NCBI GenBank assembly: GCA_041662525.1
Contig: JBAZSF010000002.1
Location: forward strand, 3,121 to 67,120
Direction: 5' to 3'
DNA: 64,000 nucleotides
Source of the DNA: Minisyncoccota bacterium
GTDB taxonomy: Bacteria > Patescibacteriota > Minisyncoccia > Phycocordibacterales > UBA9973
Below are positions 7,099-43,560 of this stretch, one piece after another. Position 1 is the first letter of the stretch; every line of letters begins with the position of its first letter. A program made the translations under genes and the position numbers. The notes beneath the pieces are model-generated. The model ran no database searches. It was not told the origin of the DNA and worked only from the letters and a program-made list of their open reading frames with translations.

Positions 7099-7216
7099 TG
7101 TGAATTATGAAACATAACTTTTCGCGGGGTTTCGAGGCTGACGAGCCGAGAACTTCAGGATTTTTTAAGCTTCAAAAAATCTGTACCGAAGAAAAGTTTA
7201 TGTTTTGTAATTCAAA
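7099..7216 (+). mobile_element. MITE-like element sharing terminal inverted repeat TGTGAATTATGAAAC with element at 10189-10330; interior homologous (reverse complement) to 15236-15300
   Basis: 5' end 'tgtgaattatgaaac' right after macB stop; degenerate 3' end 'gttttgtaattca'. Internal 'gctgacgagccgag' shared with repeat family R1. Confidence 0.4.
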
Positions 7217-7217
7217 A

Positions 7218-7322
7218 TAAAAAAACCAAACAAATTATCTTTCTTTTTTCAGGTCCTCGGTTCTCCGGGTCCCTATCTCGGCCAGACCATGAAAAAATAA
7301 AATAATTTGTTTGGTTTTTTTT
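7218..7322 (+). repeat. 18-bp perfect inverted repeat (aaaaaccaaacaaattat / ataatttgtttggttttt) whose loop carries a copy of the GGTCTGGCCGGGATAGGGACCCGGAGAACCGAGGACC element (reverse orientation)
   Basis: Read directly; the loop element matches the in-frame inserts in ksgA (58276-58312) and pcrA (59694-59730). Confidence 0.5.
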
Positions 7323-8587
7323 TATTTTCTAATAGAATAATTACCAGTGGCTATCCATTTATAGGTAGTCATTTCTTTCGGACCCATGGGACCACGAGCG
7401 TGGATTTTAGAGGTGGAAATGCCAATCTCTGAGCCAAGTCCAAAGATAGCACCATCGGAGAATCTAGTAGAAGCATTTACGTAAACTACGGCCGCGTCTA
7501 CTTCATCTAAGAATTTCTGACAATTTTTTTTATCTTCCGAAAGAATTGCTTCAGAGTGTTTGGAAGAATATTTATTAATATGTTTTATTGCTTCATCCAC
7601 ATTAGAAATAATTTTTACGGACATTTTTTGACTTAAAAACTCTCGCCCAAAATCTTCTGCTCTTGCTTTTTTTAAAAGATTAACTGGATAACATTTTTTT
7701 AATATTTCAAAACTCCTTAAATCAGCAAAAATCTCTACTTCTTTTTGGATTAACAATTCAGAAACCATAGGAAGAAATTTTTCTGCTATTTCGCTGTGTA
7801 CTAATAGTGTATCTAAAGAATTACAAACACTTGGACGTTGTGTTTTGGCATTAAAAATAATTTTGGCGGATGCATCAAGTCTAGAAGAAACGTCCACAAA
7901 AGTATGACAAACTCCAGCGCCTGTTTCGATCACTGGTACTGTAGCGTTTTCTCTCACAAAATTTATCAAACTAGAGCTTCCTCTTGGGATAATTACATCC
8001 ACCAAACCATTGGCCGAAATAATATCTAAAACAGCATCTTTTATTTTTGGATCTATAAATTGAACAACTTCAGGATCCACCCCAGAAGACATTAGAACAT
8101 TTTTTATAATTTTATGAAGAATTATATAACTTTCTCTTGCCTCCTTCCCTCCTTTAAGTATCACCGAATTGCCAGACTTGATACAAATCGCAGATACATC
8201 CGTGGTCACATTGGGTCGTGATTCATAGATAACACCGATTAACCCTATTGGCACTCTCTTTTTGCAAATTTTTAATTCTTTATTTTCTTTACTATTTCGA
8301 CAATCAAAAACCTCACCAATTGGATCTGGCATATTTATCAAACTTTCTATTTCTTTAGCCATACTTTCAATACGTGCATCATTTAAAAGCATACGGTCAC
8401 GCATCGGATCACTTGGTGGAAGTTTTTTTAAATCTTTAGAATTCGCCATAATAATTAATTTTTTATTTTTACGCAATTCTTTGGCTAAATTTTTCAAAAT
8501 TAAAATTCTTTTAGCATGAGACAAAAGTCCGAATTTAAGAGATGCTACTTTTGCTTTATTTAATTGTTTTAATATGTTCTTATTCAT
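7322..8587 (-). CDS. proA: Gamma-glutamyl phosphate reductase
   Basis: Aldehyde dehydrogenase fold with ProA-typical 'VPIGLIGVIYESRPNVTTD' and 'SNVDEAIKHINKYSSKHSEAI'; last gene of the proB-proC-proA operon. Confidence 0.9.
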   Translation of the reverse strand: MNKNILKQLNKAKVASLKFGLLSHAKRILILKNLAKELRKNKKLIIMANSKDLKKLPPSDPMRDRMLLNDARIESMAKEIESLINMPDPIGEVFDCRNSKENKELKICKKRVPIGLIGVIYESRPNVTTDVSAICIKSGNSVILKGGKEARESYIILHKIIKNVLMSSGVDPEVVQFIDPKIKDAVLDIISANGLVDVIIPRGSSSLINFVRENATVPVIETGAGVCHTFVDVSSRLDASAKIIFNAKTQRPSVCNSLDTLLVHSEIAEKFLPMVSELLIQKEVEIFADLRSFEILKKCYPVNLLKKARAEDFGREFLSQKMSVKIISNVDEAIKHINKYSSKHSEAILSEDKKNCQKFLDEVDAAVVYVNASTRFSDGAIFGLGSEIGISTSKIHARGPMGPKEMTTYKWIATGNYSIRK

Positions 8588-10114: not shown

Positions 10115-10188
10115 ATAAATACTCTAGCTCAATAATTTATTATCTGCAAATACGTAATAATGCTATACTAACTGAAATTTAAAATAAA

Positions 10189-10330
10189 CTGTGAATTATG
10201 AAACTTGTCGCAGGCGCAGTTTTCTGGAAGCATTGCGCAGGATGACGATCCGAGCATAGCAAAAAATCAGTAGATTTTTATGTGTGCTGACAGAAAACTT
10301 GTGCCAAGAAAGAGTTTCGTAATTCACAGT
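10189..10330 (+). mobile_element. MITE-like element, 142 bp, with 16-bp terminal inverted repeats CTGTGAATTATGAAAC / GTTTCGTAATTCACAG; interior is a diverged copy of repeat family R1
   Basis: TIRs read directly; internal 'ttgcgcaggatgacgatccgagcatagcaa' aligns with R1 'ttgcgcaggctgacgagccgagcagttcgctggcatagcaa'. Confidence 0.55.
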
Positions 10331-13200: not shown

Positions 13201-13227
13201 AAAAATGAAAGAAATTTTATTTGTTAT

Positions 13228-13300
13228 TTAGAAAGCCTTGCGACCAGCTCTCGAGCCGAGCAGTTCGCTGGCATAGCAATGCCAGATAGATTGCTTTATA
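13228..13300 (+). repeat. Repeat family R1 copy (…GCCTTGCG-CCAGCTCTCGAGCCGAGCAGTTCGCTGGCATAGCAATGCCAGATAGATTGCTTTATA)
   Basis: Near-identical to copies at 15110-15205 and 43467-43556; contains hairpins ctggcat-agca-atgccag and gcaat-gccagatag-attgc. Confidence 0.6.
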
Positions 13301-13318
13301 AATAGCAAATCAAATTTC

Positions 13319-13582
13319 TTAATTAACCAACTTTGATAAGCGAGATTTCTTGCGAGCGGCATTGTTCTTCTTGATCACCCCTTTTTGCGCGGATTTGTCT
13401 ATCGCCTGAAAAGCAAGTGAGAGCATTTTTCTAGCTTCGGCTTTACCTGTTTCCTTGTTTGTTTTGACAACTTTCTCGATTTTCTTGATTATTTCTTTCA
13501 TTACCTTCTTGCGTTGGTCATTAAAAGCCTTCTTGCGAAGAGAACCTCGGATTGCTTTTTTAGCTGATTGTGTTATTGGCAT
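13319..13582 (-). CDS. rpsT: 30S ribosomal protein S20
   Basis: 'MPITQSAKKAIRGSLRKKAFNDQRKK...' basic 87-aa protein matching bS20. Confidence 0.85.
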   Translation of the reverse strand: MPITQSAKKAIRGSLRKKAFNDQRKKVMKEIIKKIEKVVKTNKETGKAEARKMLSLAFQAIDKSAQKGVIKKNNAARKKSRLSKLVN

Positions 13583-13635: not shown

Positions 13636-14223
13636 ATGATTGGAAGCATTAAAGGAAAAATCATATTAAAAACAGACAAATTCCTGATCGTGGAAACGGG
13701 CGGGGTTGGCTATAAAATAAGTGTCTCCCCTGATGTACTAGCCAAGCTTGCCCCTCGACTGCGCTCGGGACAAAATGAAACAGACACTGTTTCATTTTGG
13801 ATACACACTCATGTACGAGAAGACGCTTTAGACTTGTATGGATTTTTAGAACGTTCAGAATTGGAATTTTTCGAAATGCTAATAAATATATCTGGCATAG
13901 GACCAAGGTCTGCCTTAGCAATTTTAGGAATTGCTTCAATTGAAACATTAAGAAAAGCTATTGGGACTGGAGACACTTCATATCTCACAAAAATATCAGG
14001 CATTGGTAAAAAAACTGCAGAAAGAATTGTAATTGAACTACGCGACAAAATGGGAACAAATTTAGAAGGAAGTTCCTTGCAGGGAGAATTAGACGCATTA
14101 GAAGCGCTTAAGTCTCTCGGCTATTCTCAAAACGAAGCACGTGAAGCATTAAAAAAAGTTACTCCTGATGCCAGCACCAATATAAAAATAAAAGAAGCGC
14201 TAAAAATTTTAGGAAATAAGTAA
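13636..14223 (+). CDS. ruvA: Holliday junction branch-migration complex subunit RuvA
   Basis: 'MIGSIKGKII...VETGGVGYKISV' OB domain, HhH 'ISGIGPRSALAIL', C-terminal domain III. Confidence 0.9.
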   Translation: MIGSIKGKIILKTDKFLIVETGGVGYKISVSPDVLAKLAPRLRSGQNETDTVSFWIHTHVREDALDLYGFLERSELEFFEMLINISGIGPRSALAILGIASIETLRKAIGTGDTSYLTKISGIGKKTAERIVIELRDKMGTNLEGSSLQGELDALEALKSLGYSQNEAREALKKVTPDASTNIKIKEALKILGNK

Positions 14224-14232: not shown

Positions 14233-15096
14233 ATGCCTGAGCTTCCAGAAGTTGAAACAACCACAAGGGGCCTAAGAAAAACGGTAGTAGGTCTCACAAT
14301 AAAAAATGTCTGGACTGATTTAGCAACAAAAGATAAACGCAAGACAGACAGTGTGGCCAATCCTAAATTTTTCAAAATTTTCAAGAAAGAAATTCTAAAT
14401 AAAAAAATTATATCAGTAGAAAGGCGTGCAAAAAATATTCTCATAAATCTTTCTGGCAAAAAAGAAACACAGCAAACTATTCTTATTCATCTAAAAATGA
14501 CCGGCTATTTATTTTATGGCAAAGATCCAGAAATTAAATTCGCACATGTAATTTTTACTTTAAGTAATAGTTATTATTTAATTTTTTCGGATATGCGTAA
14601 ATTCGGAAAGATAACTCTACTGGATACTAAAATTGCGCACGACAGTAAGCATTTAAATAATATCGGACCGGAACCACTTGATAAAAATTTCACTTTACCT
14701 AAATTAAAAGAACGTTTAAATAAAAAACCTACAGGTAAAATAAAAACCGTTTTAATGAATCAGGGAATCATAGCTGGTATTGGTAATATTTACTCGGATG
14801 AAATCCTCTGGCATGCTAACGTGCATCCAGAGAGAAAAGTTTCTACACTAAAAAATTCAGAAATTAAATTAATATTTAAAGCAATAAAAGAAACTCTCAA
14901 AAAAGGTATTGATTTCGGTGGAGATTCAATGTCAGATTATAAAAATATTTATGGCTTGCCTGGTAAATTCCAACTACACCATGAAGCATATAGACGCACT
15001 GGAGAAAAATGCAGAAAAAAAAATTGTAAAGGTATAATAATAAGAAAAGTTATAAATAGCCGCAGCGCACACTTTTGTGATACTCATCAAAAATAA
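14233..15096 (+). CDS. mutM: Formamidopyrimidine-DNA glycosylase (Fpg/Nei family)
   Basis: N-terminal 'MPELPEVE', H2TH region, C-terminal zinc finger 'CRKKNCKGIIIRKVINSRSAHFCDTHQ'. Confidence 0.9.
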   Translation: MPELPEVETTTRGLRKTVVGLTIKNVWTDLATKDKRKTDSVANPKFFKIFKKEILNKKIISVERRAKNILINLSGKKETQQTILIHLKMTGYLFYGKDPEIKFAHVIFTLSNSYYLIFSDMRKFGKITLLDTKIAHDSKHLNNIGPEPLDKNFTLPKLKERLNKKPTGKIKTVLMNQGIIAGIGNIYSDEILWHANVHPERKVSTLKNSEIKLIFKAIKETLKKGIDFGGDSMSDYKNIYGLPGKFQLHHEAYRRTGEKCRKKNCKGIIIRKVINSRSAHFCDTHQK

Positions 15097-15109
15097 GAGA
15101 ATATAAAAT

Positions 15110-15205
15110 TTAGAAAGCCTTGCGCAGGCTGACGAGCCGAGCAGTTCGCTGGCATAGCAATGCCAGATAGATTGCTTTATAGATTTTGATATTTTCTTAT
15201 TTTTG
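15110..15205 (+). repeat. Repeat family R1 copy (full: TTAGAAAGCCTTGCGCAGGCTGACGAGCCGAGCAGTTCGCTGGCATAGCAATGCCAGATAGATTGCTTTATAGATTTTGATATTTTC)
   Basis: Almost base-for-base identical to 43467-43556. Confidence 0.6.
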
Positions 15206-15235
15206 AATTCTAAAATTATAGAATCAAAATTTTTG

Positions 15236-17081: not shown

Positions 17082-19700
17082 TTACTTTTTCAAAACTCTT
17101 TTTAAATATTTCCCAGTATAACTTTTTGCATTATTTGCTACTTCTTCTGGTGTCCCCTTAGCAACAATATTACCTCCATTTATCCCGCCTTCCGGGCCGA
17201 TGTCTATAATATAATCAGAGCTTTTTACTATATCGAGATTGTGTTCAATCAAGACAACAGTATTACCATGAGACACTAGTTTATTTAAAACTTCTAAGAG
17301 TTTTTGCACATCATCATAATGAAGCCCCACAGTCGGTTCATCTAAAAGATAGATTGTTTTTTCTAAATGTGGACGATAAAGCTCACTACTGATTTTTACC
17401 CGTTGCGCTTCTCCGCCAGAGAGCGTCGTAGCTGATTGGCCAAGCTCTAAATAACCGAGCCCAACTTCAAAGAGAGTTTGTAACCTATCAAAAATTGCTG
17501 GAATATCTTTAAAAAATATTAATCCATTTTCTACGGTCATATTCAGCACTTCATAAATATTTTTTTTCTTATATTTTACAGTGAGTGTCTCTTTGTCAAA
17601 ACGTTTTCCATTACAAACATCACAAGTAACATAAACCGTCGGTAAAAAATGCATTTCTACAGCAATTTCCCCATTCCCTTCACATGCTTCACAACGACCA
17701 CCCTTCACGTTAAAAGAAAAACGGTTCGCTTTCCAACCTCGCAAACGTGCTTCTTCGGTTGTAGCAAAAAGATCTCGGATATGCGTAAAAGCGCCAGTAT
17801 AAGTGGCAATATTTGAACGTGGAGTCCTGCCTATGGGTGACTGATCGATCAAAATGACTCTCGACAAATATTCAGTCCCCGAAAATGAAGAGCAATTAAA
17901 AATTTTGGCTGTACGATATTTTCGTTCATAGCGAGCTTGAAGATTTTTATAAAGAATCTCATACATCAAAGAACTTTTTCCAGAACCAGAAACTCCAGTA
18001 ATAGAAGTCATAACACCTAGGGGCACTTCCACATTCAAATTATTTATATTAAAAATTTTTCCACCAGTAATACGAAGTGCTCCCTTGCCCCCTCGACGTT
18101 TTTTAGGAATTTCTATTTTTGTTTCACCGCGCAGATAACTAAGCGTTCTAGAATTATTTGTGTTCTTTTTTGCAGTTAATAAATCTTCAAGATAACCAGA
18201 AACAATAACTTCTCCACCATGGACTCCTGCTTTAGGACCAATGTCCACTATATAATCCGAAGCATAAATAGTATCTTCATCATGTTCTACTATTAAGATA
18301 GTATTTCCTAGATCTCGTAGATTTTGTAATGTTTTTATGAGTCTATCATTATCACGCTGATGAAGCCCAATGGTCGGCTCATCTAATACATAAAGTGCTC
18401 CTACGAGTCTCGATCCAAGCTGAGAAGCCAAGCGAATACGTTGTGCTTCTCCGCCAGAGAGAGTGTTTGCTTTACGAGAAAGCTGTAAATAATCCAACCC
18501 AACATCCAACATAAATTGAAGTCTGGCTTCTATCTCACGAACAACTGGCACAGATATTTCTTTTTCTTGTTCCGAAAGTTTTAAATTTTTAAAAAAATCA
18601 TAGGCATCTTTTATAGAAAGAGAAGCAAGGTCTAAAATATTTATGCCTCTAGAGGTCGGACCTCGGACTCCTTTGAGGTCCGACCTCTCTAGGAACACAT
18701 TCAAGGCTTCCGGACGAAGTCGCGCCCCATGACAAGTCTCACATGGCTCATCTCCCATAAAATATTTTGAACCAAGACCATTACAAGTAGGACAGGCGCC
18801 ATAAGGAGAATTAAAAGAAAACAATCTCGGTTCTACTTCTGGAAATGAAAAACCATCATTTTTACAAGCAAATTTTGCTGACATAATAAACTCTTCTTCG
18901 TTGATTCTTATAGTAACCAATCCGTCCGACTCAAGAAGCGCCCTCTCTAAAGCTTCAGAAAGACGCATTCTACTGCCATCTTTATTATCTACGAACTCAT
19001 GTACTGCAAAATGATCTACCAAAATATCAATATTATGAGCTTTATTTTTAGAAAGAGTAATTTGTTCGCGTAACTTTTTCATTACCCCATCGAGACGAAT
19101 CTCTGAAAAACCTTTTCCAAGTAAATCATAAAGTAATTGATAGTATTCACCTTTTCGTCCACGAACTATAGGAGAAAAAATACTTATTTCCGTTTCATCC
19201 CATTCTACACCCATAACTTTTTTATTCTTCTTTGAATTTTTACTTAATGTATTTATTTTCTCTAAAACAAAATTTAAAATTTCTTCATTGGAAAGTTTTT
19301 TTATTTCTTCTCCACATAAAGGACAATGTGGATGCCCGATGCGCGCATACATCACTCGCAAGTAATCATAAATTTCTGTAATAGTCGCCACCGTCGATCG
19401 CGGATTATTAGAACGAGATTTTTGATCAATCGAAATTGCTGGTGAAAGTCCTGTGATTTCATCCACGTCTGGCTTTGGCATTTGATTCAAAAATTGTCGA
19501 GCATAAGAAGAAAGGGACTCCACATATCGGCGTTGCCCTTCAGCGAAGATGGTATCAAAAGCCAAAGATGATTTTCCAGAACCAGAAACCCCAGTGATGG
19601 CTATCATCTTATTGCGTGGCATTTCCACTGAAATATTCTTCAGGTTATGTGTCCTAGCCCCTTTGACCCTTATTATGTCTATGTTTTTTTCTATTTTCAT
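17082..19700 (-). CDS. uvrA: Excinuclease ABC subunit A
   Basis: Two ABC modules (Walker A '[10 protein letters not shown]' x2, signatures 'LSGGEAQR' x2) with zinc-finger Cys clusters. Confidence 0.95.
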
Positions 19701-20910: not shown

Positions 20911-23142
20911 CTATTTCTTTTCTATGCGGATTCTCAAAACCCCAATCTCATCTCTCAAGATCGCCGCAGTTTCAAAGTCTAATTCTTTTACTGCTTTGTT
21001 CATTTCACGCTCTTTCATTTTTATTATTTTTTCGTAAATTAAATTACCAATCTCTTCATCTGATAAATAAGACTGTCCCAAACTAGTATTCGGTATTTTT
21101 CTATTAATCTTTTTGTCTTTTTTAAATTCTTTAGCATAAGCCCTCTTAAAAACTTCTAAATCAAGTTTGAGTTCTGCGTTCACCACCTTTCCATGCTCAC
21201 TCTCCATTTCTTCGGTAATATCTTTTATCTTTTTTATAATTGTTTTCGGAGTGATGCCATGCTTTTTATTATAAGAAAGTTGAATATTTCTTCGTCGTGT
21301 TGTTTCTCCCAATGCTTTCTCCATAGCATCTGTCATAACGTCCGCATATAGAATTACTTTCCCCTCACTATTGCGAGCCGCACGTCCAATAGTTTGAATT
21401 AAAGATGTTTCGGATCGCAAAAATCCAGCTTTATCAGCATCCAAAATTCCAATCAAAGCAACTTCTGGTAGATCAAGCCCTTCGCGCAACAGATTAACTC
21501 CAACCAAAACATCAAATTCTCCCTTTCGAAACTGTGTTAAAATTTTAATTCTCTCCATTGTTTTTATATCGCTATGTAAATATTCTGCTTTAATTTTTTT
21601 ATCTTTTAAGTAATTCGAAAGATCTTCTGCCATCTTTTTCGTCAGAGTCGTCGCTAAAACACGAAAACCTTTTGCAATTGTTTTTTCTGCTTCTGATATA
21701 AAATCTTGAATTTGGCCGGGGTAGTGCTGAGGATGATGCCCAGAGGAGTATTCGCTACGAACAGAACTTTCTTGCCCTTCCAAGATAAAGTGCGAACGAC
21801 GGCGGGCATCATCCTCAGCACTACTTTCCGAAACAGGCCTAACTATTGTTTCAGGATCTACTAATCCTGTGGGACGGATGATTTGTTCTACAATTTGTTC
21901 ACTTTCCTTTCTTTCCACATCACTTGGTGTCGCGCTTGTGTAAATTACTGGACCAATGCGTTCCTGAAATTCATTGTATTTAAGCGGTCTATTGTCTTTA
22001 GCTGAAGGTAAACGAAAACCATATTCCACAAGAGTATTTTTGCGAGAAGCGTCACCAGCATACATTCCATTTAATTGAGGAAGGGTTACATGCGATTCAT
22101 CAATAATAGTTAAAAATCCTGATTTCGGAAAGTAAGACAATAATGTCTCTGGCGGTTCACCTTCTTTCTTCCCTGATAAATGCCTAGAATAATTTTCTAT
22201 ACCATTACAATATCCGACTTCTTTTATCATTGCGAGATCGTAATTCGTTCTTCTTTTTATGCGCTCCGCTTCTAAAAGTTTTCCTTCCTTTTCAAATTTC
22301 TTTAGTTGTTGGGTCAATTCTTTTTTAATTTCCACAAGCGCTTTTTTCTTCTTTACATCTTCGGTAATAAAATGCTTCGCTGGAAAAATAAAAATACCTG
22401 CCCGTCCTTTGGCGGGTTTTATTTCTTCAATTATTTGTGAAGAAATTGGATCTATCTTTGTTATCTTTTCTATCTTTGAACCGTCAAGTTCTATTTGATA
22501 TGTAATCGTTTCCGAAACTGGCATAAATTCTACCCGCGTGCCAATAGAACGAAAAGTTCCAGGATTGAGATCTGCATTAGTGCGTTCAAAATGAATTTCA
22601 ATTAATTTTTTCATTAAAGTGAGGCGATCCATTTTCATCCCAATCTCGAGTTTTAAATTAACTTTTTCGTATTCTTCCGGAGAACCTAAACCATAAATAC
22701 AAGAAACTGAAGCAACTATTATCACATCACGCCTTGTTAGGAGCGCCTGCGTGGAAGCATGACGAAGCATATCTATTTCTTTATTAATAGAAGCATCTTT
22801 TTCAATATAAGTATCCGAAGCGGGCATATAGGCTTCCGGCTGATAATAATCATAATAAGAAACAAAATAATGCACCGCGGAATCCGGAAAAAATAACCGA
22901 AACTCTTGAGCGAGTTGAGCAGCTAAAGTTTTATTATGAGCTATTACTAAGGTTGGTTTGTTGTACTGTGCGATAACATTCGCCATAGTAAAAGTCTTAC
23001 CGGTACCTGTGGCTCCGAGCAATGTTTGCTTTTTCATTCCCCTTTCTAAGCCCTGCACAAGTGCGGAAATAGCCGCTGGTTGGTCTCCTGCAGGCTGGAA
23101 AGGATTATGCAATTTAAAGATACTTCCTTGATTTTTCGACAT
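20911..23142 (-). CDS. uvrB: Excinuclease ABC subunit B, carrying an in-frame ~40-aa palindromic-repeat insertion
   Basis: Helicase motifs 'GATGTGKTFTMANVI', 'DESHVT', C-terminal UVR domain. Extra 'VSESSAEDDARRRSHFILEGQESSVRSEYSSGHHPQHYPG' sits between conserved 'VRP' and 'QIQDFI'. Confidence 0.95.
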   Translation of the reverse strand: MSKNQGSIFKLHNPFQPAGDQPAAISALVQGLERGMKKQTLLGATGTGKTFTMANVIAQYNKPTLVIAHNKTLAAQLAQEFRLFFPDSAVHYFVSYYDYYQPEAYMPASDTYIEKDASINKEIDMLRHASTQALLTRRDVIIVASVSCIYGLGSPEEYEKVNLKLEIGMKMDRLTLMKKLIEIHFERTNADLNPGTFRSIGTRVEFMPVSETITYQIELDGSKIEKITKIDPISSQIIEEIKPAKGRAGIFIFPAKHFITEDVKKKKALVEIKKELTQQLKKFEKEGKLLEAERIKRRTNYDLAMIKEVGYCNGIENYSRHLSGKKEGEPPETLLSYFPKSGFLTIIDESHVTLPQLNGMYAGDASRKNTLVEYGFRLPSAKDNRPLKYNEFQERIGPVIYTSATPSDVERKESEQIVEQIIRPTGLVDPETIVRPVSESSAEDDARRRSHFILEGQESSVRSEYSSGHHPQHYPGQIQDFISEAEKTIAKGFRVLATTLTKKMAEDLSNYLKDKKIKAEYLHSDIKTMERIKILTQFRKGEFDVLVGVNLLREGLDLPEVALIGILDADKAGFLRSETSLIQTIGRAARNSEGKVILYADVMTDAMEKALGETTRRRNIQLSYNKKHGITPKTIIKKIKDITEEMESEHGKVVNAELKLDLEVFKRAYAKEFKKDKKINRKIPNTSLGQSYLSDEEIGNLIYEKIIKMKEREMNKAVKELDFETAAILRDEIGVLRIRIEKK
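21713..21838. repeat. Palindromic element inserted in-frame in uvrB (21-bp perfect inverted repeat GGTAGTGCTGAGGATGATGCCC / GGGCATCATCCTCAGCACTAC flanking ~60 bp)
   Basis: Inverted repeats at 21720-21741 and 21804-21824 read directly; maps to the non-conserved insert in the UvrB protein. Confidence 0.6.
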
Positions 23143-26525: not shown

Positions 26526-29006
26526 TCATTTTACTTCCTTAAGATTATCTCCAAAACCAAAGTGTACTTCTAGCGGAATATCTGTTTTATAATATAAAAA
26601 TGATTTCTGGAGTACCCCCTCCATGGCCTCTTTTATTATTTTTTCAGCTTTTTCCAACACACTTTCTTCCACTTCGTAAACCAATTCATCATGAATTTGA
26701 AGTATCAGATGAACACTCTCTAATAACCCAGCTTCCTTCAAACCTTCTTCCGTATACCTTATAGCTAATTTAATAATATCAGCCGCTGTCCCCTGAAGGG
26801 GGGCATTGGTCGCAGTCCGCTCGGCCATATTTTTCAAAAATGGAATTCTAGAGTTTATGTTTGGAAAATTCCTACGCCGACCAAATAAAGTTTCAGTATA
26901 AGAATTCTTTAACACGAACTTTTTTACTTCTTCTAAATAATCCCGCACCCCAGAAAATTGATTGAAATAATTATCATAAAACTTTTGGGCTTCTTCTCTC
27001 GTGCCACCGAGATTCTTCCGCAGGGCAGAAACTCCCATACCATAAATAATTCCAAAATTTATCACTTTTGCTTTTCTCCTCATTTCCCTGTCCACTTTTT
27101 CTATCGGCACATCGAAAACAAATGAAGCCACTCCAGTATGAATATCTTTTTTCTCTCGGAAAACTTGTGTCATTTTTTTATCACCTGAAAGCATAGCCGC
27201 TACCCGTAATTCAATCTGACTATAATCAAAAGCTACCAGCTTGTGACCTTTTGACGCAACAATACCACCTCGGATTCTTCTGCCAAGTTCTGTTTTTATT
27301 GGTAAATTTTGCAAGTTGGGATCTTGAGAAGCAAATCTTCCTGTGGTGGTGCCATTTTGTAAAAATTTAGCATGCAAGCGACCATCGGCATCTACCATTT
27401 TAGGAATAACATCAATATAAGTAGAAAGTAGTTTCTGCAATTCTCGATAAAATAATATTTCTTTTATGATTGGATTTTCTTCTTCCAATTCTTCTAATAC
27501 AGAAACCTTGGTAGAAAACCCACCACTTGCATTTTTCTTTACTTTATTTTTTCCTGGTGATTTTATGCCCATTTTATCAAAAAGCACTTCGCCTAATTGT
27601 TTTGGTGAATTTATATTAAATTCTACACCCGCCTGAGTGTATATTTTTTTAGTTAAAATATCTAATTCCTTATGATATTCAAGTGATAATTTTTCAAAAT
27701 ATTTTTTATCTATTAAAATTCCATAATCTTCCATTTTTTTCACTATCGGAATAATAGGTTTTTCTATCTCTTCATAAACTTTTTCTAATTTTTTTTCTTT
27801 CAGTGTTTTAAAAATCTGTTCATATGCTATTTCAAAAGAACTAGCATGCGTAAAAAACAAAATATCTTCCAAACTTGGATTGGGGATATCGGAATTGATG
27901 AGCCAAAGAGCGATACTGGCTTCTTGGAGTTTTTGCGCAGGAGGCAAAATAAGAGAATTTTTGAGCTGGTCTGGTTGAGCCCGCTCTTTTAAAGAATTCT
28001 GTGCGGGTGACCCGAGGACCCGAGAAAATTCTGCTGATTTTGCCTCCTGCTTATTCCCATCAAAAAAATTCCTCAGACGTGTAAGTAAACTCCTGAATTC
28101 AAAAATTGAAAAAACTTGTTCAATTTTTTTAAAATCGACAATTTCCCAAAAAGTTTTTTCTGGTAAAATGAAATCTATCGGGGTATCGGTTCTAATGGTC
28201 GCCAATATTTTGGAAAACAAGGCCTCCTCCTCGTTGTTTTTAAGTAACTCAATCATTCTAGGACTAATGCCTGCTTTCAAAAAATCTTCTTCGCCTTTCT
28301 TACCGTTTTCTTTGATTTTTTTATAAATTTCTTCGATGGTTCCAAATTTTGAAATTAAAATTTCAGCTGTTTTTTCGCCAACTCCTTTTATACCAATAAT
28401 ATTATCTGATGGGTCTCCACGTAGTCCTTTGTAATCCGGCAAAAGTCTCGGTTTAAAATGAAATCGGTTTATCATCGCATCTTCGTCGTATAAAATAGTA
28501 TCGTTAATTCCCTTTTTCAGAGTGTAAACTTGTACTTTTTTATCATCTATTAATTGCATAGTATCCATATCGCCTGAAGCAATAATAATTTTTATATTTT
28601 TATCTTTTTTATATTTCTCCACTATTGTTCCCAAGACATCATCCGCTTCAAAGCCAGGTGCATCATACATGGGTATATCAAAAGCATCAAAAATCTGACG
28701 GGAATTTTTCAATTGCATTATCAAGGCATCTTCCGTTTTTGCTCGGCCTGCTTTGTATCCATCATGAGCTTCGTGTCTAAAAGTTTTTTGGGGTAAATCA
28801 TAACAAGCCACAATATAGTCTGGCTTTAACTCAGTAATTATTTTCATCAACATAGTAGAAAGCCCATACAATGCTCCTGTCGGTTCACCCTTTGAAGATA
28901 AGAACTCCGGCAAAGCATGATAAGCGCGATGGATGATGGCATGAGCATCTAGTAATACTAAGGTTTTACTATCATTTGTTCTATTATTTATTTTTGTTTT
29001 TGGCAT
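26526..29006 (-). CDS. polA: DNA polymerase I
   Basis: 5'-3' exonuclease N-terminus 'LVLLDAHAIIHRAYHAL', polymerase motifs 'DYSQIELRV', 'RRKAKVINFGIIYGMG', 'LQIHDELVYE'. Confidence 0.9.
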   Translation of the reverse strand: MPKTKINNRTNDSKTLVLLDAHAIIHRAYHALPEFLSSKGEPTGALYGLSTMLMKIITELKPDYIVACYDLPQKTFRHEAHDGYKAGRAKTEDALIMQLKNSRQIFDAFDIPMYDAPGFEADDVLGTIVEKYKKDKNIKIIIASGDMDTMQLIDDKKVQVYTLKKGINDTILYDEDAMINRFHFKPRLLPDYKGLRGDPSDNIIGIKGVGEKTAEILISKFGTIEEIYKKIKENGKKGEEDFLKAGISPRMIELLKNNEEEALFSKILATIRTDTPIDFILPEKTFWEIVDFKKIEQVFSIFEFRSLLTRLRNFFDGNKQEAKSAEFSRVLGSPAQNSLKERAQPDQLKNSLILPPAQKLQEASIALWLINSDIPNPSLEDILFFTHASSFEIAYEQIFKTLKEKKLEKVYEEIEKPIIPIVKKMEDYGILIDKKYFEKLSLEYHKELDILTKKIYTQAGVEFNINSPKQLGEVLFDKMGIKSPGKNKVKKNASGGFSTKVSVLEELEEENPIIKEILFYRELQKLLSTYIDVIPKMVDADGRLHAKFLQNGTTTGRFASQDPNLQNLPIKTELGRRIRGGIVASKGHKLVAFDYSQIELRVAAMLSGDKKMTQVFREKKDIHTGVASFVFDVPIEKVDREMRRKAKVINFGIIYGMGVSALRKNLGGTREEAQKFYDNYFNQFSGVRDYLEEVKKFVLKNSYTETLFGRRRNFPNINSRIPFLKNMAERTATNAPLQGTAADIIKLAIRYTEEGLKEAGLLESVHLILQIHDELVYEVEESVLEKAEKIIKEAMEGVLQKSFLYYKTDIPLEVHFGFGDNLKEVK

Positions 29007-35830: not shown

Positions 35831-38383
35831 ATGATTAAAGGAATGCAAAAAATATTAAAGAAATTCAAAAAATTGTTTAAAAATAAAAGGTTCTTGAGGA
35901 ATATACTGCTATTATCCGCGGGTGTTTCTATACTAATGTTTGGAATACTTGTTATTTTACTATCTTCTTTAAATATTCCTGATTTAAATTCATTTGAGGA
36001 GAGAAAAATCATGAACTCTACTCAGATTTATGATCGTACGGGGGAAATTTTACTTTACGACATACATCAAGATATAAAAAGAACAGAGATCCCTTTTGAA
36101 CAAATGGGTTCAAGCATAAAAAATGCGACTATAGCTATCGAAGACGCTGAATTTTACACTCACAGTGGAGTCAAAATAACTTCTACCATTCGAGCTCTTT
36201 TTTCTAATTTATTTCATTTTGGAATAGGAGGCGGTGGCTCGACGATAACTCAACAATTGGTAAAAAATACTCTTTTAACGACAAAAAGAAGTTACGTCAG
36301 AAAAATAAAAGAATGGGTTTTGGCAATCAAGATAGACAATTCTATGTCTAAAGATAAAATCTTGGAAGCTTACTTGAACGAAATTCCTTATGGAGGAACT
36401 ATTTACGGTATAGAAACTGCCAGTAAAACTTATTTTAATAAAACTGCATTTGATTTAACATTAGCAGAAGCTGCATACCTAGCTTCTATCCCCCAGTCGC
36501 CGACCACTCTTTCACCTTATGGTAAGAATAGGGCTAAACTGGATGCCAGAAAGAATTTAGTATTATCCAGAATGTTAGAGTTGAAATTTATTACCAAAGA
36601 ACAATACGACCAAGCTAAAAATGAAGTGGTAACTTTTATTCCACAAGCTATATTGGGTATCAAAGCACCACATTTTGTTTTCTGGATTAAAGATTATTTA
36701 GAACAAAAATATGGAGTTGATATGGTAGAAAATGGTGGACTCAAAGTTACCACTACCATAGACGCAGATCTACAAGCCAAAGCAGATCAAATCGTAAAAG
36801 ATGGCGCATTACAAAATGAAAAAGATTGGAATGGAAGCAATGCTGGATTGGTGGCAATAGACCCAAAAACAGGGCAAATTTTAACAATGGTCGGCTCAAG
36901 AGATTATTTTGATAAAACCATTGATGGTAATTTCAATATAGCAACAGCTACCAGGCAGCCCGGGTCCTCTTTTAAGCCCTTTATTTACGCTACGGCCTTC
37001 AATAAAGGTTTTACCCCAGACACAGTACTGTTTGACCTACCAACAGAATTTCAATCAACCTGCAACGCCTACGGCAAGGCCCTACCTGGATACAACCAAC
37101 GAGATTGTTACATGCCAAGCAATTATGATGGAAAATTTCGTGGGCCGATGAGTCTACGGAATGCATTAGCACAATCAATCAACATTGTAGCAGTAAAACT
37201 TTTCTACTTGGCAGGACTTTCTGATTCATTAAAAAAAGCAAAAGATATGGGGATCAGTTCTCTAAAAGATATCAATCAATACGGTCTCACTCTCGTTATT
37301 GGAGGTGGAGAAGTTTCACTTTTGGATATGACTTCAGCCTATGGAGTCTTTGCAAACAATGGGATCAGAAATCCTTATACTGGAATTTTAAAAGTGGAAG
37401 ATTCCCATCAAAAAATTCTAGAAGAATTTAAACCTACAGCACAAGAAATCTTACCCAAAAACACTACCTTAAATATTTCAAATATTCTTTCTGATGAAGA
37501 AGCTCGCCAACCAACTTTTGGAGTACACTCTGTTTTATATATTCCCAATAAAGATGTGGCTGTAAAAACTGGAACAACAAACGACAACAAGGATGCTTGG
37601 ACCATTGGGTATTCTCCGTCTATTGTTGTGGGTGTTTGGGCTGGTAATAATGACAACAAGCCAATGAAAAAAGGTGGGGCAGCAGTAGCAGGGCCGATTT
37701 GGAATAAATTTATAAATGAAGCATTAAAAATACTCCCTTCTGAGAGTTTTGAAAAACCAGACATGGAAACTGATCCGACTAAAATAAAACCAGTTCTCCG
37801 TGGATTTTGGCAAGGGAATGAAAACTTCTTTATAGATAAAATTTCTGGTCTCTTGGCAACTGATAATACACCAAAGGAAACCTTGCAAGAAAAAATAATC
37901 ACCAATGTGCATTCAATTTTGTATTGGGTGGATCGAGATGATATCTTGGGGCAAGCCCCCTTGGGGGGAGGAGACAATAATTCTCAATTTAATCATTGGG
38001 AAATACCTGTCCAAAACTGGTGGGCACAAAACAGAGGAAATTATCCGACAACAACTTGGAGCGAAAAACCAATTGCAGTAGACAATGTGCACACTGATTC
38101 ATCAAAACCAATAGTCTCGATTCTTGAACCAAATAATACAACCACCTATTCCCCTGACCAAAAAATAAATTTAAAAATTTCAAGTTTTGGAATTTTTCCT
38201 TTACAAAAAATAGATATTTTTATAAATGGAATATATTTAGAAACTATAACATCTCCTTTTAATTTTTCTTTTACCCCAAAAGATTTAGAATCTATACAAA
38301 GTGAAAATGAATTAAAAATAATTTCTTATGATACTGTTTATAACAAAAGTGAAACCAATTTAATTTTTAAAGTAAACCAGTAG
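35831..38383 (+). CDS. Class A penicillin-binding protein (transglycosylase + transpeptidase) with C-terminal extension
   Basis: GT51 motifs 'AIEDAEFYTHSGV', 'GGSTITQQLVKN'; TPase 'SSFKPF' (SxxK), 'KTGTTND' (KTG). Start chosen at MIKGMQK; ORF-track start 35633 overlaps tyrS. Confidence 0.85.
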   Translation: MIKGMQKILKKFKKLFKNKRFLRNILLLSAGVSILMFGILVILLSSLNIPDLNSFEERKIMNSTQIYDRTGEILLYDIHQDIKRTEIPFEQMGSSIKNATIAIEDAEFYTHSGVKITSTIRALFSNLFHFGIGGGGSTITQQLVKNTLLTTKRSYVRKIKEWVLAIKIDNSMSKDKILEAYLNEIPYGGTIYGIETASKTYFNKTAFDLTLAEAAYLASIPQSPTTLSPYGKNRAKLDARKNLVLSRMLELKFITKEQYDQAKNEVVTFIPQAILGIKAPHFVFWIKDYLEQKYGVDMVENGGLKVTTTIDADLQAKADQIVKDGALQNEKDWNGSNAGLVAIDPKTGQILTMVGSRDYFDKTIDGNFNIATATRQPGSSFKPFIYATAFNKGFTPDTVLFDLPTEFQSTCNAYGKALPGYNQRDCYMPSNYDGKFRGPMSLRNALAQSINIVAVKLFYLAGLSDSLKKAKDMGISSLKDINQYGLTLVIGGGEVSLLDMTSAYGVFANNGIRNPYTGILKVEDSHQKILEEFKPTAQEILPKNTTLNISNILSDEEARQPTFGVHSVLYIPNKDVAVKTGTTNDNKDAWTIGYSPSIVVGVWAGNNDNKPMKKGGAAVAGPIWNKFINEALKILPSESFEKPDMETDPTKIKPVLRGFWQGNENFFIDKISGLLATDNTPKETLQEKIITNVHSILYWVDRDDILGQAPLGGGDNNSQFNHWEIPVQNWWAQNRGNYPTTTWSEKPIAVDNVHTDSSKPIVSILEPNNTTTYSPDQKINLKISSFGIFPLQKIDIFINGIYLETITSPFNFSFTPKDLESIQSENELKIISYDTVYNKSETNLIFKVNQ

Positions 38384-38628: not shown

Positions 38629-38697
38629 TAGGCTCTAGGCATCTAGGCTCTAGGCTTTAGCTTTGGTTCAGCTAACGCCTAAGGCCTAAAGCCTAAT
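38629..38697. repeat. Palindromic heptamer-array element (CTAGGCT… arm / GCCTAAG GCCTAAA GCCTAAT arm)
   Basis: Related arrays at 48898-48975 and 58638-58670, all in intergenic gaps of minus-strand operons. Confidence 0.5.
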
Positions 38698-38704: not shown

Positions 38705-39802
38705 TCATCTATTCATGGGCATGATAAGATAAGTAAAAGATGAATCAGAAATAGGAGAAATAACTATTGGCTTAGATGCTCCAGATAATTTTACAGAAAC
38801 ACTATCAGTATTAATTGATTGAAAACAATCTAAAAAATATTTATAATTAAAACTTAGTTCAACAATTTCTCCTTTAAGAACAGCATCTAAATATGTTTTA
38901 TTTTCTCCAATATCATTATTGGCAGAAGAAAGTTCAAAAATTTTTTCTTTAGGTGAAATCTTTAGATTAACTTGATTGAATTTATCTGAAAAAACATTAG
39001 AAAGTTTTAAAGCATTTAATAAATCTTGTTTGAGTACCACCACATCAGTCAAAGAATCTTTTGGAATGATTTGCCTATAGTCTGGAAAAATACCATCAAT
39101 AATTCTTGAAGTTAAATAAACATTATCGGAAGAAAAAGAAATTTGATTTTTATTAAAACAAACCTTTATAGTACCTTTAAATTCTCCGAAGACTTTCAAT
39201 ATTTCTCCTATGTTTTTATATGGGATAAGAATTCCCAGAATCTCCTCGAGTCCTTTTACTTTAACTTTTTTTTCAGCCAACCTAAACGAATCTGTAGAAA
39301 CAAAAATTAAATTATCCTCATTGGTATACATAAAAACACTTGAAATTTCAGGTTTAATGTCTGAAATGGAAGAACTATAGTAAACCGCTTTTATTCCATC
39401 AATTAATTTATTTGATTCTATTTCAAAACTACTACCAACAACTTTTGGTATTGTTGGGAAATCTTCGTGGGGCTGACTTTTAAGTTTTATTTGGCTTTTT
39501 TTTGTTTTAATTAATAAGTTTCCGTCTGTGTTTTCAAAAAATATATTTTCATTTTGTGAAACATTAGAAAAAACAGCATTTAATATTGATCCAGAAACAG
39601 CAAGGGATCCTTCTTTTTCCACCTTGGCTGGAATTTCAATTTCAATTCCAAGATTTAAATTTGTAGATCTAAGTTTTAATGAGTTATTGGAAGTAATTAA
39701 TAATATTGAACTTAATATTGGTAAAGTTAAATTCTTACCAGTAATTCTTTCTACTTGAGAAATAGCATTTTTTATTTTCTCCACAGAGCATTCTAGTTTC
39801 AT
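38705..39802 (-). CDS. dnaN: DNA polymerase III beta sliding clamp
   Basis: Three-domain clamp, N-terminal 'MKLECSVEKIKNAISQVERI…LPILSSILL', C-terminal 'IMPMNR'. Confidence 0.9.
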   Translation of the reverse strand: MKLECSVEKIKNAISQVERITGKNLTLPILSSILLITSNNSLKLRSTNLNLGIEIEIPAKVEKEGSLAVSGSILNAVFSNVSQNENIFFENTDGNLLIKTKKSQIKLKSQPHEDFPTIPKVVGSSFEIESNKLIDGIKAVYYSSSISDIKPEISSVFMYTNEDNLIFVSTDSFRLAEKKVKVKGLEEILGILIPYKNIGEILKVFGEFKGTIKVCFNKNQISFSSDNVYLTSRIIDGIFPDYRQIIPKDSLTDVVVLKQDLLNALKLSNVFSDKFNQVNLKISPKEKIFELSSANNDIGENKTYLDAVLKGEIVELSFNYKYFLDCFQSINTDSVSVKLSGASKPIVISPISDSSFTYLIMPMNR

Positions 39803-39947
39803 ATGTTTATATATTATATATTTAAATTATTAATAATATTAGGTGTGTTGATAAGTGTATAAGTATTTTTTATATTGGTAAACATTATTGTTTTACTGAA
39901 TTTATTTTTTAATTTAAGTCTGATAACTTTCTAATAACTATTTTTAA
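39803..39947. promoter_or_regulatory. AT-rich dnaA-dnaN intergenic region with DnaA-box-like TGTTGATAA (candidate DUE / second oriC module)
   Basis: 'gtgttgataagtgtataag' and >80% A+T content. Confidence 0.4.
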
Positions 39948-41285
39948 TTATTTAAACATAATCCTTATTTGTTCTAATTCTTGGATTAATTGTGGATCAT
40001 TTTTTAAATCTTCTTTGATTTTTACACATGAATGCATGACTGTTGTATGGTCTTTTCCACCTAATTTTTGTCCTATGAGTGGATAAGAAACACTAAAATC
40101 TTCTCGAAGTAAATACATAATAATTTGTCTGGTTTTTACTATTTCCTTTTTTCTAGTTTTTTCATAAATAGACATTTCTTCTAATTTATAATATTCAGCT
40201 ACAACTTTTACAACATCTTTTATAGCCATATTCTTTTTTGGTTTCATGTTGTTTTTTAGTAGATTTTTAACTTCTATGAGCGAGGGGGCCTTATTTTTTA
40301 AGCGATATTGGCAAATAATAAGATTTAAGCTTCCTTCAAGCTCACGAATATTTCCTTGGATGGAAGAAGCAACATAATCAATTACATCCTCTTCTAAGGT
40401 TATATTGAGTTCACGAAGCCTTACCTTAATAATTGCGAGACGAGACTCGTATTCTGGCTCAGTGACGTCTACAATCATTCCTGCAGCAAAACGAGACTTT
40501 AAACGATCTGCTAGTTCTGGAATATAATTAGGGTGTTTATCGGAAGAAAAAATAATTTGTTTATTGTTTTCATAAAAAGTATTAAATGTATGAAAAAGTT
40601 CTTCTTGAATTTTTTCCATTTTACCAATGAATTGGATATCATCTATGATCAAAAGATCATATTTACGATATTTTTCTTTAAAAGAATTTGCTTTATTCCC
40701 CTGGAGGGAGTTTATAAAATCTGTTGCAAACTTTTCCAAGGTCATATAGTGCACCTTTTTTTCAGGATGTTTATTTTTTATTGAATTTCCTACAGCTTGA
40801 ATCAAGTGAGTTTTTCCGAGACCAGTGCCACCATAAATAAAAAATGGATTATATTTAGTTCCAGGTGATTCTATTATTGCTTGGGAAGCCGCATAAGCGA
40901 GTTCGTTGAAGGCCCCGACAATAAAAGAATTAAAATGGTAACGTGGATTTAGATTATTCTCTGGATTTATATATAAATCCTTTAAAGGTAATTCTTTTTC
41001 TATGGTTTCACTTATTATTGTTTCTTGTTTAGAATTTTCTATTTTTGTAATTACATATTCTACCGCACGCATATTTTCATAATTTTCGGCTATGGTTTTG
41101 GTTATGAGTTTATGGTATTTATTTATAAGCCAATCACGAACAAATTCATTTGGTACTCCTACATACACAATCCCATTTTCCTCTTTTGCGATAGATGTAT
41201 TTTTAAACCATGTACTAAAATTGGCTTTAGACATGTCAGATTCAATTTTTAGTAAACAGTTTTTCCACAATTGGTTTGTGTTCAT
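39948..41285 (-). CDS. dnaA: Chromosomal replication initiator DnaA
   Basis: AAA+ 'GGTGLGKTHLIQAVG', 'LLIIDDIQF', C-terminal DNA-binding 'YPLIGQKLGGKDHTTVMHS'. Confidence 0.95.
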   Translation of the reverse strand: MNTNQLWKNCLLKIESDMSKANFSTWFKNTSIAKEENGIVYVGVPNEFVRDWLINKYHKLITKTIAENYENMRAVEYVITKIENSKQETIISETIEKELPLKDLYINPENNLNPRYHFNSFIVGAFNELAYAASQAIIESPGTKYNPFFIYGGTGLGKTHLIQAVGNSIKNKHPEKKVHYMTLEKFATDFINSLQGNKANSFKEKYRKYDLLIIDDIQFIGKMEKIQEELFHTFNTFYENNKQIIFSSDKHPNYIPELADRLKSRFAAGMIVDVTEPEYESRLAIIKVRLRELNITLEEDVIDYVASSIQGNIRELEGSLNLIICQYRLKNKAPSLIEVKNLLKNNMKPKKNMAIKDVVKVVAEYYKLEEMSIYEKTRKKEIVKTRQIIMYLLREDFSVSYPLIGQKLGGKDHTTVMHSCVKIKEDLKNDPQLIQELEQIRIMFK

Positions 41286-41436
41286 AGTTTCATATTATAC
41301 TCTTTATAAAACAGAAGGCATCTTTTAAAGCTTATTAACTCTGTTGATAAGCTGTGGATAAAAATTTTTTCTTAATAATTTTTTACGAGGAAGATTAAAT
41401 GAATTTGATTTATTCTTAATAATATTGTAAACTTTG
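41286..41436. promoter_or_regulatory. Candidate oriC: dnaA/rpmH divergent intergenic region with one perfect DnaA box (TTATCCACA) and an adjacent 1-mismatch box (TTATCAACA)
   Basis: 'ctgttgataagctgtggataaaaa' at ~41335-41360 read directly; classic rpmH-dnaA origin arrangement. Confidence 0.55.
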
Positions 41437-41439
41437 ATT

Positions 41440-41574
41440 ATGTCAGTTACATATCAACCTAAAAAAAGAAAAAGAGCAAGAGCCCATGGTTTTTTGGTTA
41501 GATCCAGGATTAAGACCGGGAAAAAGGTTCTTAAAAGAAGACGCCAAAAGGGTAGAAAAAAACTCAGTGTTTAA
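41440..41574 (+). CDS. rpmH: 50S ribosomal protein L34
   Basis: Translates to '[44 protein letters not shown]' (44 aa), the canonical bL34. Below the ORF-track size cutoff. Confidence 0.85.
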
Positions 41575-41586
41575 CTTGGTTTAAAT

Positions 41587-42181: not shown

Positions 42182-42234
42182 TCCCGTTGTTTGATTTTCT
42201 AGCGTTTTTTTGCTTTTTCATATAGAATGAGGTA

Positions 42235-42960: not shown

Positions 42961-42961
42961 T

Positions 42962-43556: not shown

Positions 43557-43560
43557 TTCT

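Follow-up and report, generated by a model that had tools for sequence, protein, structure and literature searches.

In the passages that a 2024 review of miniature transposable elements with inverted repeats (MITEs) devotes to them, Rickettsia palindromic elements (RPEs; Ogata et al., 2000, 2002) appear as palindromic families of a reduced, AT-rich genome, about half of them located in open reading frames (ORFs) and in frame, where they add peptide segments to unrelated housekeeping proteins; according to these passages, no encoded transposase is known for them (PMC10969869). The review still treats Rickettsia as the outstanding case and only speculates on similar processes elsewhere, and it describes bacterial MITEs such as Correia/NEMIS, ERIC, BOX and Nezha as small non-autonomous repeats with inverted ends that occasionally lie in frame within genes (PMC10969869). 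Here we report palindromic elements located in frame inside uvrB, pcrA, rsmA and yidD on contig JBAZSF010000002.1 of a Minisyncoccota bacterium. The analyzed stretch of 64 kb (hereafter the window) has a GC content of 34.5% and belongs to a bacterium of the candidate phyla radiation (CPR; Patescibacteria) close to Nomurabacteria. The elements, at 50-68% GC, form GC islands within it.

A parallel to RPEs had been proposed from the nucleotide sequence of the window by itself (the sequence-only reading), and it holds for the behavior of the elements: they form multi-copy palindromic families, about half of the copies lie in ORFs, and these are in frame at indel-tolerant positions. As in Rickettsia, the families have both genic and intergenic members (here A, B, C and an F/Q/S superfamily), and the host genes of in-frame copies are intact. 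The host, in contrast, is an unrelated CPR lineage, the cores are GC-rich and of other sequence, the elements measure about 18-150 nt, and at least eight families reuse one codon. Furthermore, core sequences hardly differ between genomes in which the silent sites of the host genes are saturated, suggestive of current activity or homogenization. The elements would thus be classed as an analog of RPEs and not as RPE members. We consider it likely that they are selfish, non-autonomous hairpin elements that the host tolerates and translates when they lie in frame in permissive loops, functionally the RPE scenario. Our best reading is that families A, B, C, D and E and the F/Q/S superfamily are native to the Nomurabacteria/Paceibacterota within the CPR. 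The RPE-like behavior is the known part of this picture, and the new part would be the occurrence in the CPR together with a build in which a conserved core sits on a copy-specific stem. Full-text searches of the literature outside subscription journals found no description of such elements in the CPR. Compared with the sequence-only reading, the families are many and not few, with at least eight at a single uvrB codon, and the phenomenon is clade-wide in Nomurabacteria/Paceibacterota. The combination of a conserved core with copy-specific, partly host-made arms has, to our knowledge, not been described for RPEs or classical MITEs.

Strong inverted repeats are present at all six sites that had been named in advance, one each in uvrB and yidD and two each in pcrA and rsmA, and every site matches a protein segment that has no counterpart in solved or related orthologs, as the sequence-only reading had supposed. 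Its coordinates placed the sites correctly, only their ends requiring minor shifts (position 59730 in pcrA, for example, is slightly short), and the insert boundaries proved exact against the solved structures of UvrB, PcrA and KsgA. The window contains 15 strong hairpins, compared with none or one in local shuffles; seven of these lie in long ORFs and one more in yidD. Single-strand folding yields z values against shuffles of -7.4 to -8.8 (family A), -6.7 (C), -7.5 (D) and -5.0 (E); family B folds weakly (z about -1.9). Two direct-repeat units recur, namely a 56-nt unit of family A at 58266-58321 (rsmA), 59684-59739 (pcrA) and, in reverse orientation, 7244-7297 (intergenic), and a 110-nt unit of family B at 59556-59665 and 60549-60658, both in pcrA. 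The products of the host genes align over their full length with solved structures (UvrB, E = 7e-228; PcrA, E = 3e-149), and the genes contain neither frameshifts nor stop codons, so that an explanation by pseudogenes fails. A shared lineage-specific loop fails as an explanation too, because close relatives possess either an empty site or an unrelated element at the same codon. The surviving genic inserts comprise 6-66 amino acids, are mostly hydrophilic, and cluster at few indel-tolerant positions per gene instead of being spread along the genes.

The element of the uvrB ORF (20911-23142, minus strand) illustrates this pattern. At site 1, a family C copy (21721-21831, minus; encoding SESSAEDDARRRSHFILEGQESSVRSEYSSGHHPQHY) has its core between perfect 21-nt arms at 21721-21741 and 21804-21824. 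The corresponding residues 438-474 of UvrB are a clean 37-amino-acid insertion between the adjacent residues 427 and 428 of the solved structure 9gy7_E, residues 9-437 aligning with 5-427 and residues 475-645 with 428-598 of that structure (E = 7e-228). A second position, site 2 (22110-22127, minus), is empty in the window (..TTTCCGAAATCAGGATTTTTA..), where the mini-palindrome AAATCAGGATTT lies at the junction of SYFPK and SGFL. A further in-frame insert, a small GC-rich palindrome of 18 nt at 22397-22416 (minus; PAKGRA), is absent from the closest available relative (L001). In the 120 UvrB relatives with the best matches (identity 77-100%, 684-792 amino acids long), site 1 is empty (VRPVSEKGNYKGQIQDF) in about half, and at least five extra amino acids follow residue 437 in 59 and residue 341, that is site 2, in 48. 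Across these relatives the site 1 codon hosts at least eight unrelated insert families. Its occupants include family C (RRRSHSILEGQxSSGRSEYSSE), a PLLxKERG type, family B (ERTLGRSGDDGQRKFSAENFRGESE), which is the same as the inserts in pcrA of the window, and family A in two frames (GDPENRGPEQK and FSQVLGSP..). Family C also fills site 2 in other genomes, and truncated element remnants exist among the relatives. A structure model of UvrB by AlphaFold2, built with 40 close homologs, reached a mean predicted local distance difference test score (pLDDT) of only 55, with residues 436-475 below 50 between a strand and a helix, and is too poor to judge surface exposure; the exposure of the insert sites is therefore only presumed, from alignment gaps against solved structures.

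Comparison with L001, which shares a 22-kb syntenic locus with the window at approximately 84% DNA identity and 87% UvrB identity, reveals how these sites differ between close relatives. Where site 2 is empty in the window, L001 carries a 93-nt family C copy, and another relative (L199) has one there as well. The 69-nt core of this copy is identical to the site 1 core of L001 itself, and the arms that flank the two cores are unrelated. Likewise, the two uvrB cores of L199 are more alike than either is to those of L001; this likeness within genomes points to intragenomic copying or gene conversion. The site 1 arms of the window and their L001 orthologs differ by three compensated double changes. 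At site 1 of a further relative (L198), the 3' arm (..CCTTACCCTGGCC) extends into the codons for the invariant Y-P-G-Q, and the reverse complement of these codons forms the 5' arm.

The pcrA ORF (58671-60929, minus) contains two extra segments relative to the solved structure 1pjr, at residues 77-127 (site 1) and 392-457 (site 2). Site 1 is occupied by a family B element (60549-60658, minus; encoding QYVLERTLGRSDGDGQRKFSAENFRGESENILS). Site 2 is a composite, in which a family B element (59549-59664, minus; DAGKYVLERTLGRSGDAEQEEFSGEFFRGESENVLSS; arms 59549-59571 and 59642-59664) adjoins a family A element (59667-59756, minus; SSAGDAFSEVLGSPGPYPGQTIQKSASGRAQ) with its core at 59692-59728 and copy-specific arms of 26 nt. 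The pcrA-rsmA region was compared with 80 loci from metagenomes. Most of these relatives lack an insert at site 1, the rest having one of family B, family A or other families there; at site 2 only 3 of 68 relatives have no insert, and the occupants belong to A, B, F/Q/S and other families. The arms at site 2 start at conserved ..LD(N/S)G codons, the mirror image of which gives a recurrent '..PLS(E/Q)' on the other side. In two relatives (L018:5276-5350 and L056:2192-2270) the family A core is split by a second small hairpin (TTGGAATCTG..CAGATTCCAA), which is nested and in frame in pcrA. One related contig (L079; Ga0172379_10031298), 100% identical to the 5' part of the window's pcrA, ends within this gene near the repeat block of site 2, and the elements appear to break metagenome assemblies in this manner. 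Two PcrA homologs of 1075 and 1136 amino acids (L080:342-3567 and L081:3826-7234) exceed the usual length by about 400 residues, for which an intein or some other large insertion, of a different kind from the hairpin elements, probably accounts. A motif ..GCTAAYGCCTARRGCCTAAAGCCTA is common to the pcrA-rsmA junction (58624-58662) and to a position just downstream of dnaN (38657-38695).

In the neighboring rsmA (57677-58630, minus), the alignment with solved KsgA has gaps at both of the previously named sites. Site 1 is a family A element (58248-58340, minus; NQVIQKFFSGPRFSGSLSRPDHSKNFESPDF; core 58276-58312; arms 58248-58270 and 58318-58340), and site 2 (57877-57960, minus) consists of a family E hairpin (CCCTCTC...GAGAGGG; encoding TSPQPSPYKREGGNG) and a small arms-only hairpin at 57877-57899. 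A third, small GC-rich hairpin insert (58087-58129, minus; NPSTPLRV) is found in few relatives only. Site 1 is filled in 16 and site 2 in 22 of 54 relatives. Whichever way the core is oriented at site 1, 23 codons are inserted at one and the same position. Read on the coding strand, native host sequence makes up the 3' arm, and the 5' arm is an inverted copy of it; in 8/8 copies, removal of the 5' arm plus core fits the 34 empty orthologs better than removal of the core plus 3' arm. Mean core identity of seven site 1 copies is 0.95, a figure somewhat inflated by the pattern used to find the copies, vs 0.71 for conserved columns of the host gene and 0.51 for third codon positions. Hairpins consisting of arms only, with perfect arms of 8-13 nt, a loop of 3-7 nt and no family core, occur within genes at 13771-13799, at 57877-57899 and at rsmA site 1 of the relative L004, and may be what is left after loss of a core or may have arisen by the fold-back process considered below.

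The yidD element represents family D, which is single-copy in all sequence compared. This hairpin (41908-41984, plus; arms 41908-41930 and 41962-41984) is placed exactly at the rnpA stop codon and contributes to the N-terminus of YidD (LIS-PVRSRSPQGDRSTRLLARAASNGIS-FYQ). Residues 36-97 correspond to positions 6-67 of the Pfam YidD profile, the match beginning only after the insert. At the 3' end of the same gene, a small GC-rich palindrome (CCCGTCACTCGCGAGCGACAGGG; 42150-42190) encodes the C-terminal ..DPVTRERQG. The surrounding region (38705-43447) is the chromosomal origin neighborhood, with dnaN, dnaA, rpmH, rnpA, yidD, yidC and a jag/R3H gene in canonical order.

A scan of the GTDB representative genomes with a degenerate pattern of the family A core yielded at least 114 stretches. 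All matches listed are from metagenome-assembled genomes (MAGs) of Patescibacteria, mostly labeled Nomurabacteria/Paceibacterota, with up to seven loci per MAG. The viral contigs of IMG/VR gave no family A match and hence no sign of a phage vector. When copies inside an ORF of at least 150 amino acids, with at least 25 amino acids on each side, are counted as genic, 70 (55%) of the 128 distinct family A copies among the matches listed are genic and 58 intergenic, orthologous copies included. The claim that the families also occur between genes was thus correct, as was its example, a family A copy in the window with its core at 7252-7288. Genic family A copies use exactly the five frames in which the consensus is free of stops (28, 22, 11, 6 and 3 copies), and none uses the closed frame. 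Of 19 family B copies, 18 are genic, located in pcrA, rsmA, uvrB and two unidentified ORFs, and are read in one frame only though five are open; all seven family C copies are genic and share a single frame. The motif GCGCAGGCTGACGAGCCGAGCA of the F/Q/S superfamily is intergenic in the window (10234, 15121 and 43478) and genic in pcrA and rsmA of relatives. The 58 non-genic family A copies occupy tight spacers whose flanking genes end or start within a few nucleotides, for example between atpG and atpD, where the copy is at orthologous positions in two genomes, or between polA and the next gene. Split genes at these copies were looked for and not found (positions checked for all 58, five inspected in detail). 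With respect to strand, genic copies are distributed 53:17 and intergenic ones 11:13; the latter ratio gives no evidence for strand-specific insertion, and the bias among genic copies can probably be ascribed to orthologs and to tolerance at the peptide level.

Because frames are preserved, the closed frame is avoided and the inserts cluster at few indel-tolerant codons, we infer that translation extends through the inserts and that they are filtered by selection acting at the protein level. Candidate insert or junction peptides are PVSESSAEDDAR, SHFILEGQESSVR, TLGRSDGDGQR, FSAENFR and FSGSLSRPDHSK. Alternatively, the elements could be eliminated on the way to the protein, either excised like introns or skipped by the ribosome, in which case the proteins would be unaltered. 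Yeast mitochondrial GC clusters and the byp elements of Magnusiomyces mitochondria are GC-rich palindromic mobile elements of AT-rich genomes that enter protein-coding genes, and the strong GC-rich hairpins in the AT-rich genome studied here resemble them. However, a byp disrupts the frame and the ribosome skips it, and byps reside in an organelle and not in a free-living or episymbiotic bacterium. Here, every genic copy examined is in frame and devoid of stop codons, the one closed frame of family A is never used, no genes are split among its 58 non-genic copies, and family B keeps to one frame in 18/18 genic copies although five are open. The clustering of inserts at few indel-tolerant positions, the lack of any Rfam intron or ribozyme match and the length of 6-66 amino acids, which is too short for inteins, also speak against removal, and we regard it as very improbable. 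An Rfam search of the elements, at gathering as well as permissive thresholds, gave nothing relevant, sub-threshold hits being due to chance or coding conservation. A hammerhead-like reading of CTGACGAG in family F was discarded, as Rfam gave no hit for it and it lacks the remainder of the core. Protein-level searches were of little help: HMMER with the 35-amino-acid family B peptide against a library of 1.8 billion proteins gave only eight weak hits, with several unrelated repeat proteins among them, a query of this length being too short, and a word-index search with a 48-amino-acid insert gave a single, uninformative candidate.

Ordinary lineage-specific loops, low-complexity expansions or assembly artifacts could be invoked as well, since the sites are naturally indel-prone and one related contig, L079, breaks at an element. 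Yet the same nucleotide sequences recur across genes, frames, orientations and intergenic spacers, they are found in dozens of independent assemblies from different studies, and the hairpin statistics are far above those of shuffled controls. We therefore attach practically no probability to this explanation.

The copies have a characteristic architecture. The center of family A reads cTTTTnGAAT-GGTCTGGCCGGGATAGGGACCCGGAGAACCGAGGACC-TGAnAAAAg, and pairwise identity amounts to 0.92 in the core and 0.34 in the arms, which carry zero information beyond the T/A run. The two arms of a copy, mostly 15-29 nt long, are mutually complementary (about 93%), and their pairing exceeds the 95th percentile of random controls in 128/128 copies. 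In an alignment of 31 family A copies, pre-selected for long arms in one register, 21 of 23 pairs of the outer helix have changed on both sides, with 89% of the cells paired, and covariation is 0.61 vs 0.15 in shuffled alignments (reached by 0/500) and 0.09-0.16 in slid controls. An inner core pair covaries from C-G to U-A. The same build is found in family C (6/7 copies) and in F/Q/S (97%); family B has shorter, partly family-specific ends. As the core is read in five frames, selection at the protein level cannot explain its conservation, which leaves recent spread, homogenization among copies, or selection at the nucleic acid level as candidates.

The last of these candidates would be expected if the elements were structural motifs selected by the host, such as protein-binding sites or signals for RNA stability, termination or processing, with the genic copies being by-products or functional themselves. 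This would account for a core far more conserved than synonymous sites, for the strong stem covariation including the C-G to U-A change, and for intergenic copies that fill operon spacers exactly, as between atpG and atpD. It is, however, difficult to reconcile with the many unrelated families that occupy the same codon in different genomes, with presence or absence differing between close relatives, and with the truncated remnants. Moreover, intergenic copies have no orientation preference relative to transcription (11 vs 13), and no Rfam family matches. A host-selected motif thus appears rather unlikely to us.

With classical MITEs the elements share their small size, multi-copy non-coding nature and inverted ends. 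Family-specific terminal repeats, as in ordinary MITEs, are present in family B and in one F subfamily only (GGACAAAATGTT; TGAATTATGAAAC). If the elements were classical MITEs, the ends would be fixed, a transposase would be encoded elsewhere in the genome, and the copy-specific arms would result from fast compensatory drift of terminal inverted repeats. In keeping with this possibility, an element with inverted ends of about 11-12 nt, inserted at the center of the host mini-palindrome and possibly accompanied by a 3-nt CAG duplication, is another way of reading uvrB site 2. On the other hand, family A has arms that differ from copy to copy, and C and F/Q/S resemble it in this respect; those of family A carry no sequence information despite cores that are 92-95% identical, the identical 69-nt cores at the two L001 sites have different arms, and arms overlap conserved host codons. 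Nor is there a consistent direct target-site duplication, the lengths of flanking direct repeats being distributed about as in controls (3.6 vs 3.2 nt), though a duplication of 2-4 nt may be present. No parent insertion sequence was seen, and searches of the window ORFs of at least 150 amino acids for transposase, reverse transcriptase, HUH and integrase gave no hit, whole genomes not having been searched. On this evidence a classical MITE is a doubtful explanation, although it is less so than a host motif.

For selfish hairpin elements as favored here, the following course can be envisaged. Copies would land genome-wide, and those that survive would be either in intergenic spacers or, when stop-free and compatible in length, in indel-tolerant loops, where the ribosome would read them through as extra loops. 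Each copy consists of an apical core of about 45-70 nt on a stem unique to that copy, and, at sites testable by orthologs, one arm of the stem is the flanking codons of the host and the other their reverse complement. Given a host-derived arm with an inverted partner, copy-choice or fold-back synthesis can be postulated at insertion or during immediate post-insertion repair: the core would be copied into the site, and the nascent strand would snap back on the hairpin and copy 10-25 nt of adjacent host sequence in inverted form. Such a process would involve no cut-and-paste, no fixed terminal repeats and no direct target duplication. The cores would be kept alike by continued copying or by gene conversion among copies, and the stems would be kept paired by compensatory change or arm-to-arm templating. 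Fold-back synthesis would explain why stems are host-derived and copy-specific and why neither fixed ends nor direct duplications are seen, and also the nested hairpins of L018 and L056, and the arms-only hairpins in ruvA (13771-13799) and L004. We propose a copy-choice or fold-back process for the insertion step only tentatively. With comparable reserve, the CPR may host an undescribed class of mobile hairpins, in which the core alone would be transmissible and the stem would derive from inverted target duplication, which would be distinct from all known transposition chemistries and, by returning to the same permissive codons, would have remodeled loops in a large share of the clade's housekeeping proteins.

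Several points weigh against this interpretation. Some arms are not obviously host-derived, among them the window's own 21-nt uvrB arms, and the terminal repeats of family B and one F subfamily are those of ordinary MITEs. Arm boundaries are approximate, and with such fuzzy ends a length-modulo-3 comparison did not separate one-arm from both-arm insertion. Both core orientations at one site could reflect flipping between the arms instead of separate insertions, and core identity within a genome may be due to gene conversion and not to recent transposition. The copy numbers include orthologs and are accordingly not counts of independent events, the taxonomic range of family A is a lower bound, and the covariation alignment was a selected one. 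Finally, that the inserts would be translated is argued from frame preservation and clustering in loops.

Other small mobile repeats share some of these traits. Repetitive extragenic palindromic (REP) and REPIN elements are extragenic by definition, have a conserved stem sequence and are mobilized by REP-associated tyrosine transposases (RAYTs; Y1 HUH). Like these, the elements described here are short, imperfect, multi-copy palindromes that presumably form single-strand hairpins, and any mobilizing enzyme would be encoded elsewhere. In contrast, 70 of 128 family A copies among the matches listed and 18 of 19 family B copies lie in ORFs, and the stems are not conserved. No RAYT gene was seen in the window, the genomes of relatives not having been searched. 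The small dispersed repeats of Nostoc (SDRs; Elhai et al. 2008) are reportedly very small mobile repeats of 21-27 nt, mostly non-coding, with compensatory changes and nested insertions. The secondary structure shared among copies, with compensatory changes, and the nested insertions are thus common to both. We know of no report of an inverted duplication of host codons or of systematic in-frame insertion into housekeeping proteins for SDRs.

Elements in the window are not restricted to the six sites discussed so far. Additional genic sites are present in uvrA (18639-18700), polA (27937-28050), ruvA (13746-13799), uvrB (22397-22416, see above) and a penicillin-binding protein gene (36625-36754). 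In uvrA, the GC-rich hairpin at 18639-18700 (minus) and its counterpart in L001 (L001:14520-14600) are two different palindromic elements at the same position, so that the element is replaced and not simply gained or lost. The hairpin element in polA (27937-28050, minus) is common to L001, where it is 95% identical. The ruvA site (13746-13799, plus) comprises a 21-nt GC-rich palindromic in-frame insert, absent from L001, and the arms-only hairpin at 13771-13799. In atpD of another relative (L178:4533-4900), short GC-rich-looking inserts (..PSTSSGQVA.. and ..LPAETLAKSGG..) were observed, which suggests that core energy machinery is affected as well. Among the intergenic elements of the window, the family A copy at 7214-7326 is located between convergent genes and has its core (7252-7288) in reverse orientation between long AT-rich arms (7214-7255 and 7285-7326). 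It is adjoined by an F-like element recognized from the sequence by its GGCTGACGAGCCGAG motif (7099-7215). An element of the F/Q/S superfamily is located at 10188-10330, and F-family elements at 13208-13328, 15089-15209 and 43446-43566; the core motif of the one at 15089-15209 is genic in pcrA and rsmA of relatives.

Beyond these elements, the window encodes a cluster resembling a type IV secretion system (T4SS; 43561-56616 and 60952-63309), with a P-loop ATPase of the TraG/VirB4 type (47037-48890) and a T4SS pilin plus NlpC/P60 protein (44956-45972). Large ORFs of 307-785 amino acids around this cluster have no Pfam match. A surface-protein-like ORF at 9-1805, with hits to TSP1 and DUF11, contains an internal direct repeat of 159 nt (171-329 and 354-512, 90% identical) and is followed by a perfect 21-nt palindrome (1826-1867) that is terminator-like.

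Selfish palindromic DNA that writes peptides into essential proteins has until now been known mainly from Rickettsia, and the elements described here would add a much larger second case, in a different reduced-genome radiation that accounts for a large part of bacterial diversity. Alignments, phylogenies and predicted structures of CPR proteins would be contaminated by element-derived loops, and read-through of such elements may lie behind short 'hypothetical' ORFs and unusual peptide motifs in CPR annotations. The hot-spot codons would map where helicases, polymerases and methyltransferases tolerate insertions of 20-60 amino acids. The build, with a conserved core and a copy-specific stem derived in part from the host, suggests that insertion proceeds without fixed ends, and the many pairs of filled and empty sites in public metagenomes make this process directly testable; inverted target duplication, if true, would be a new mechanism of insertion.

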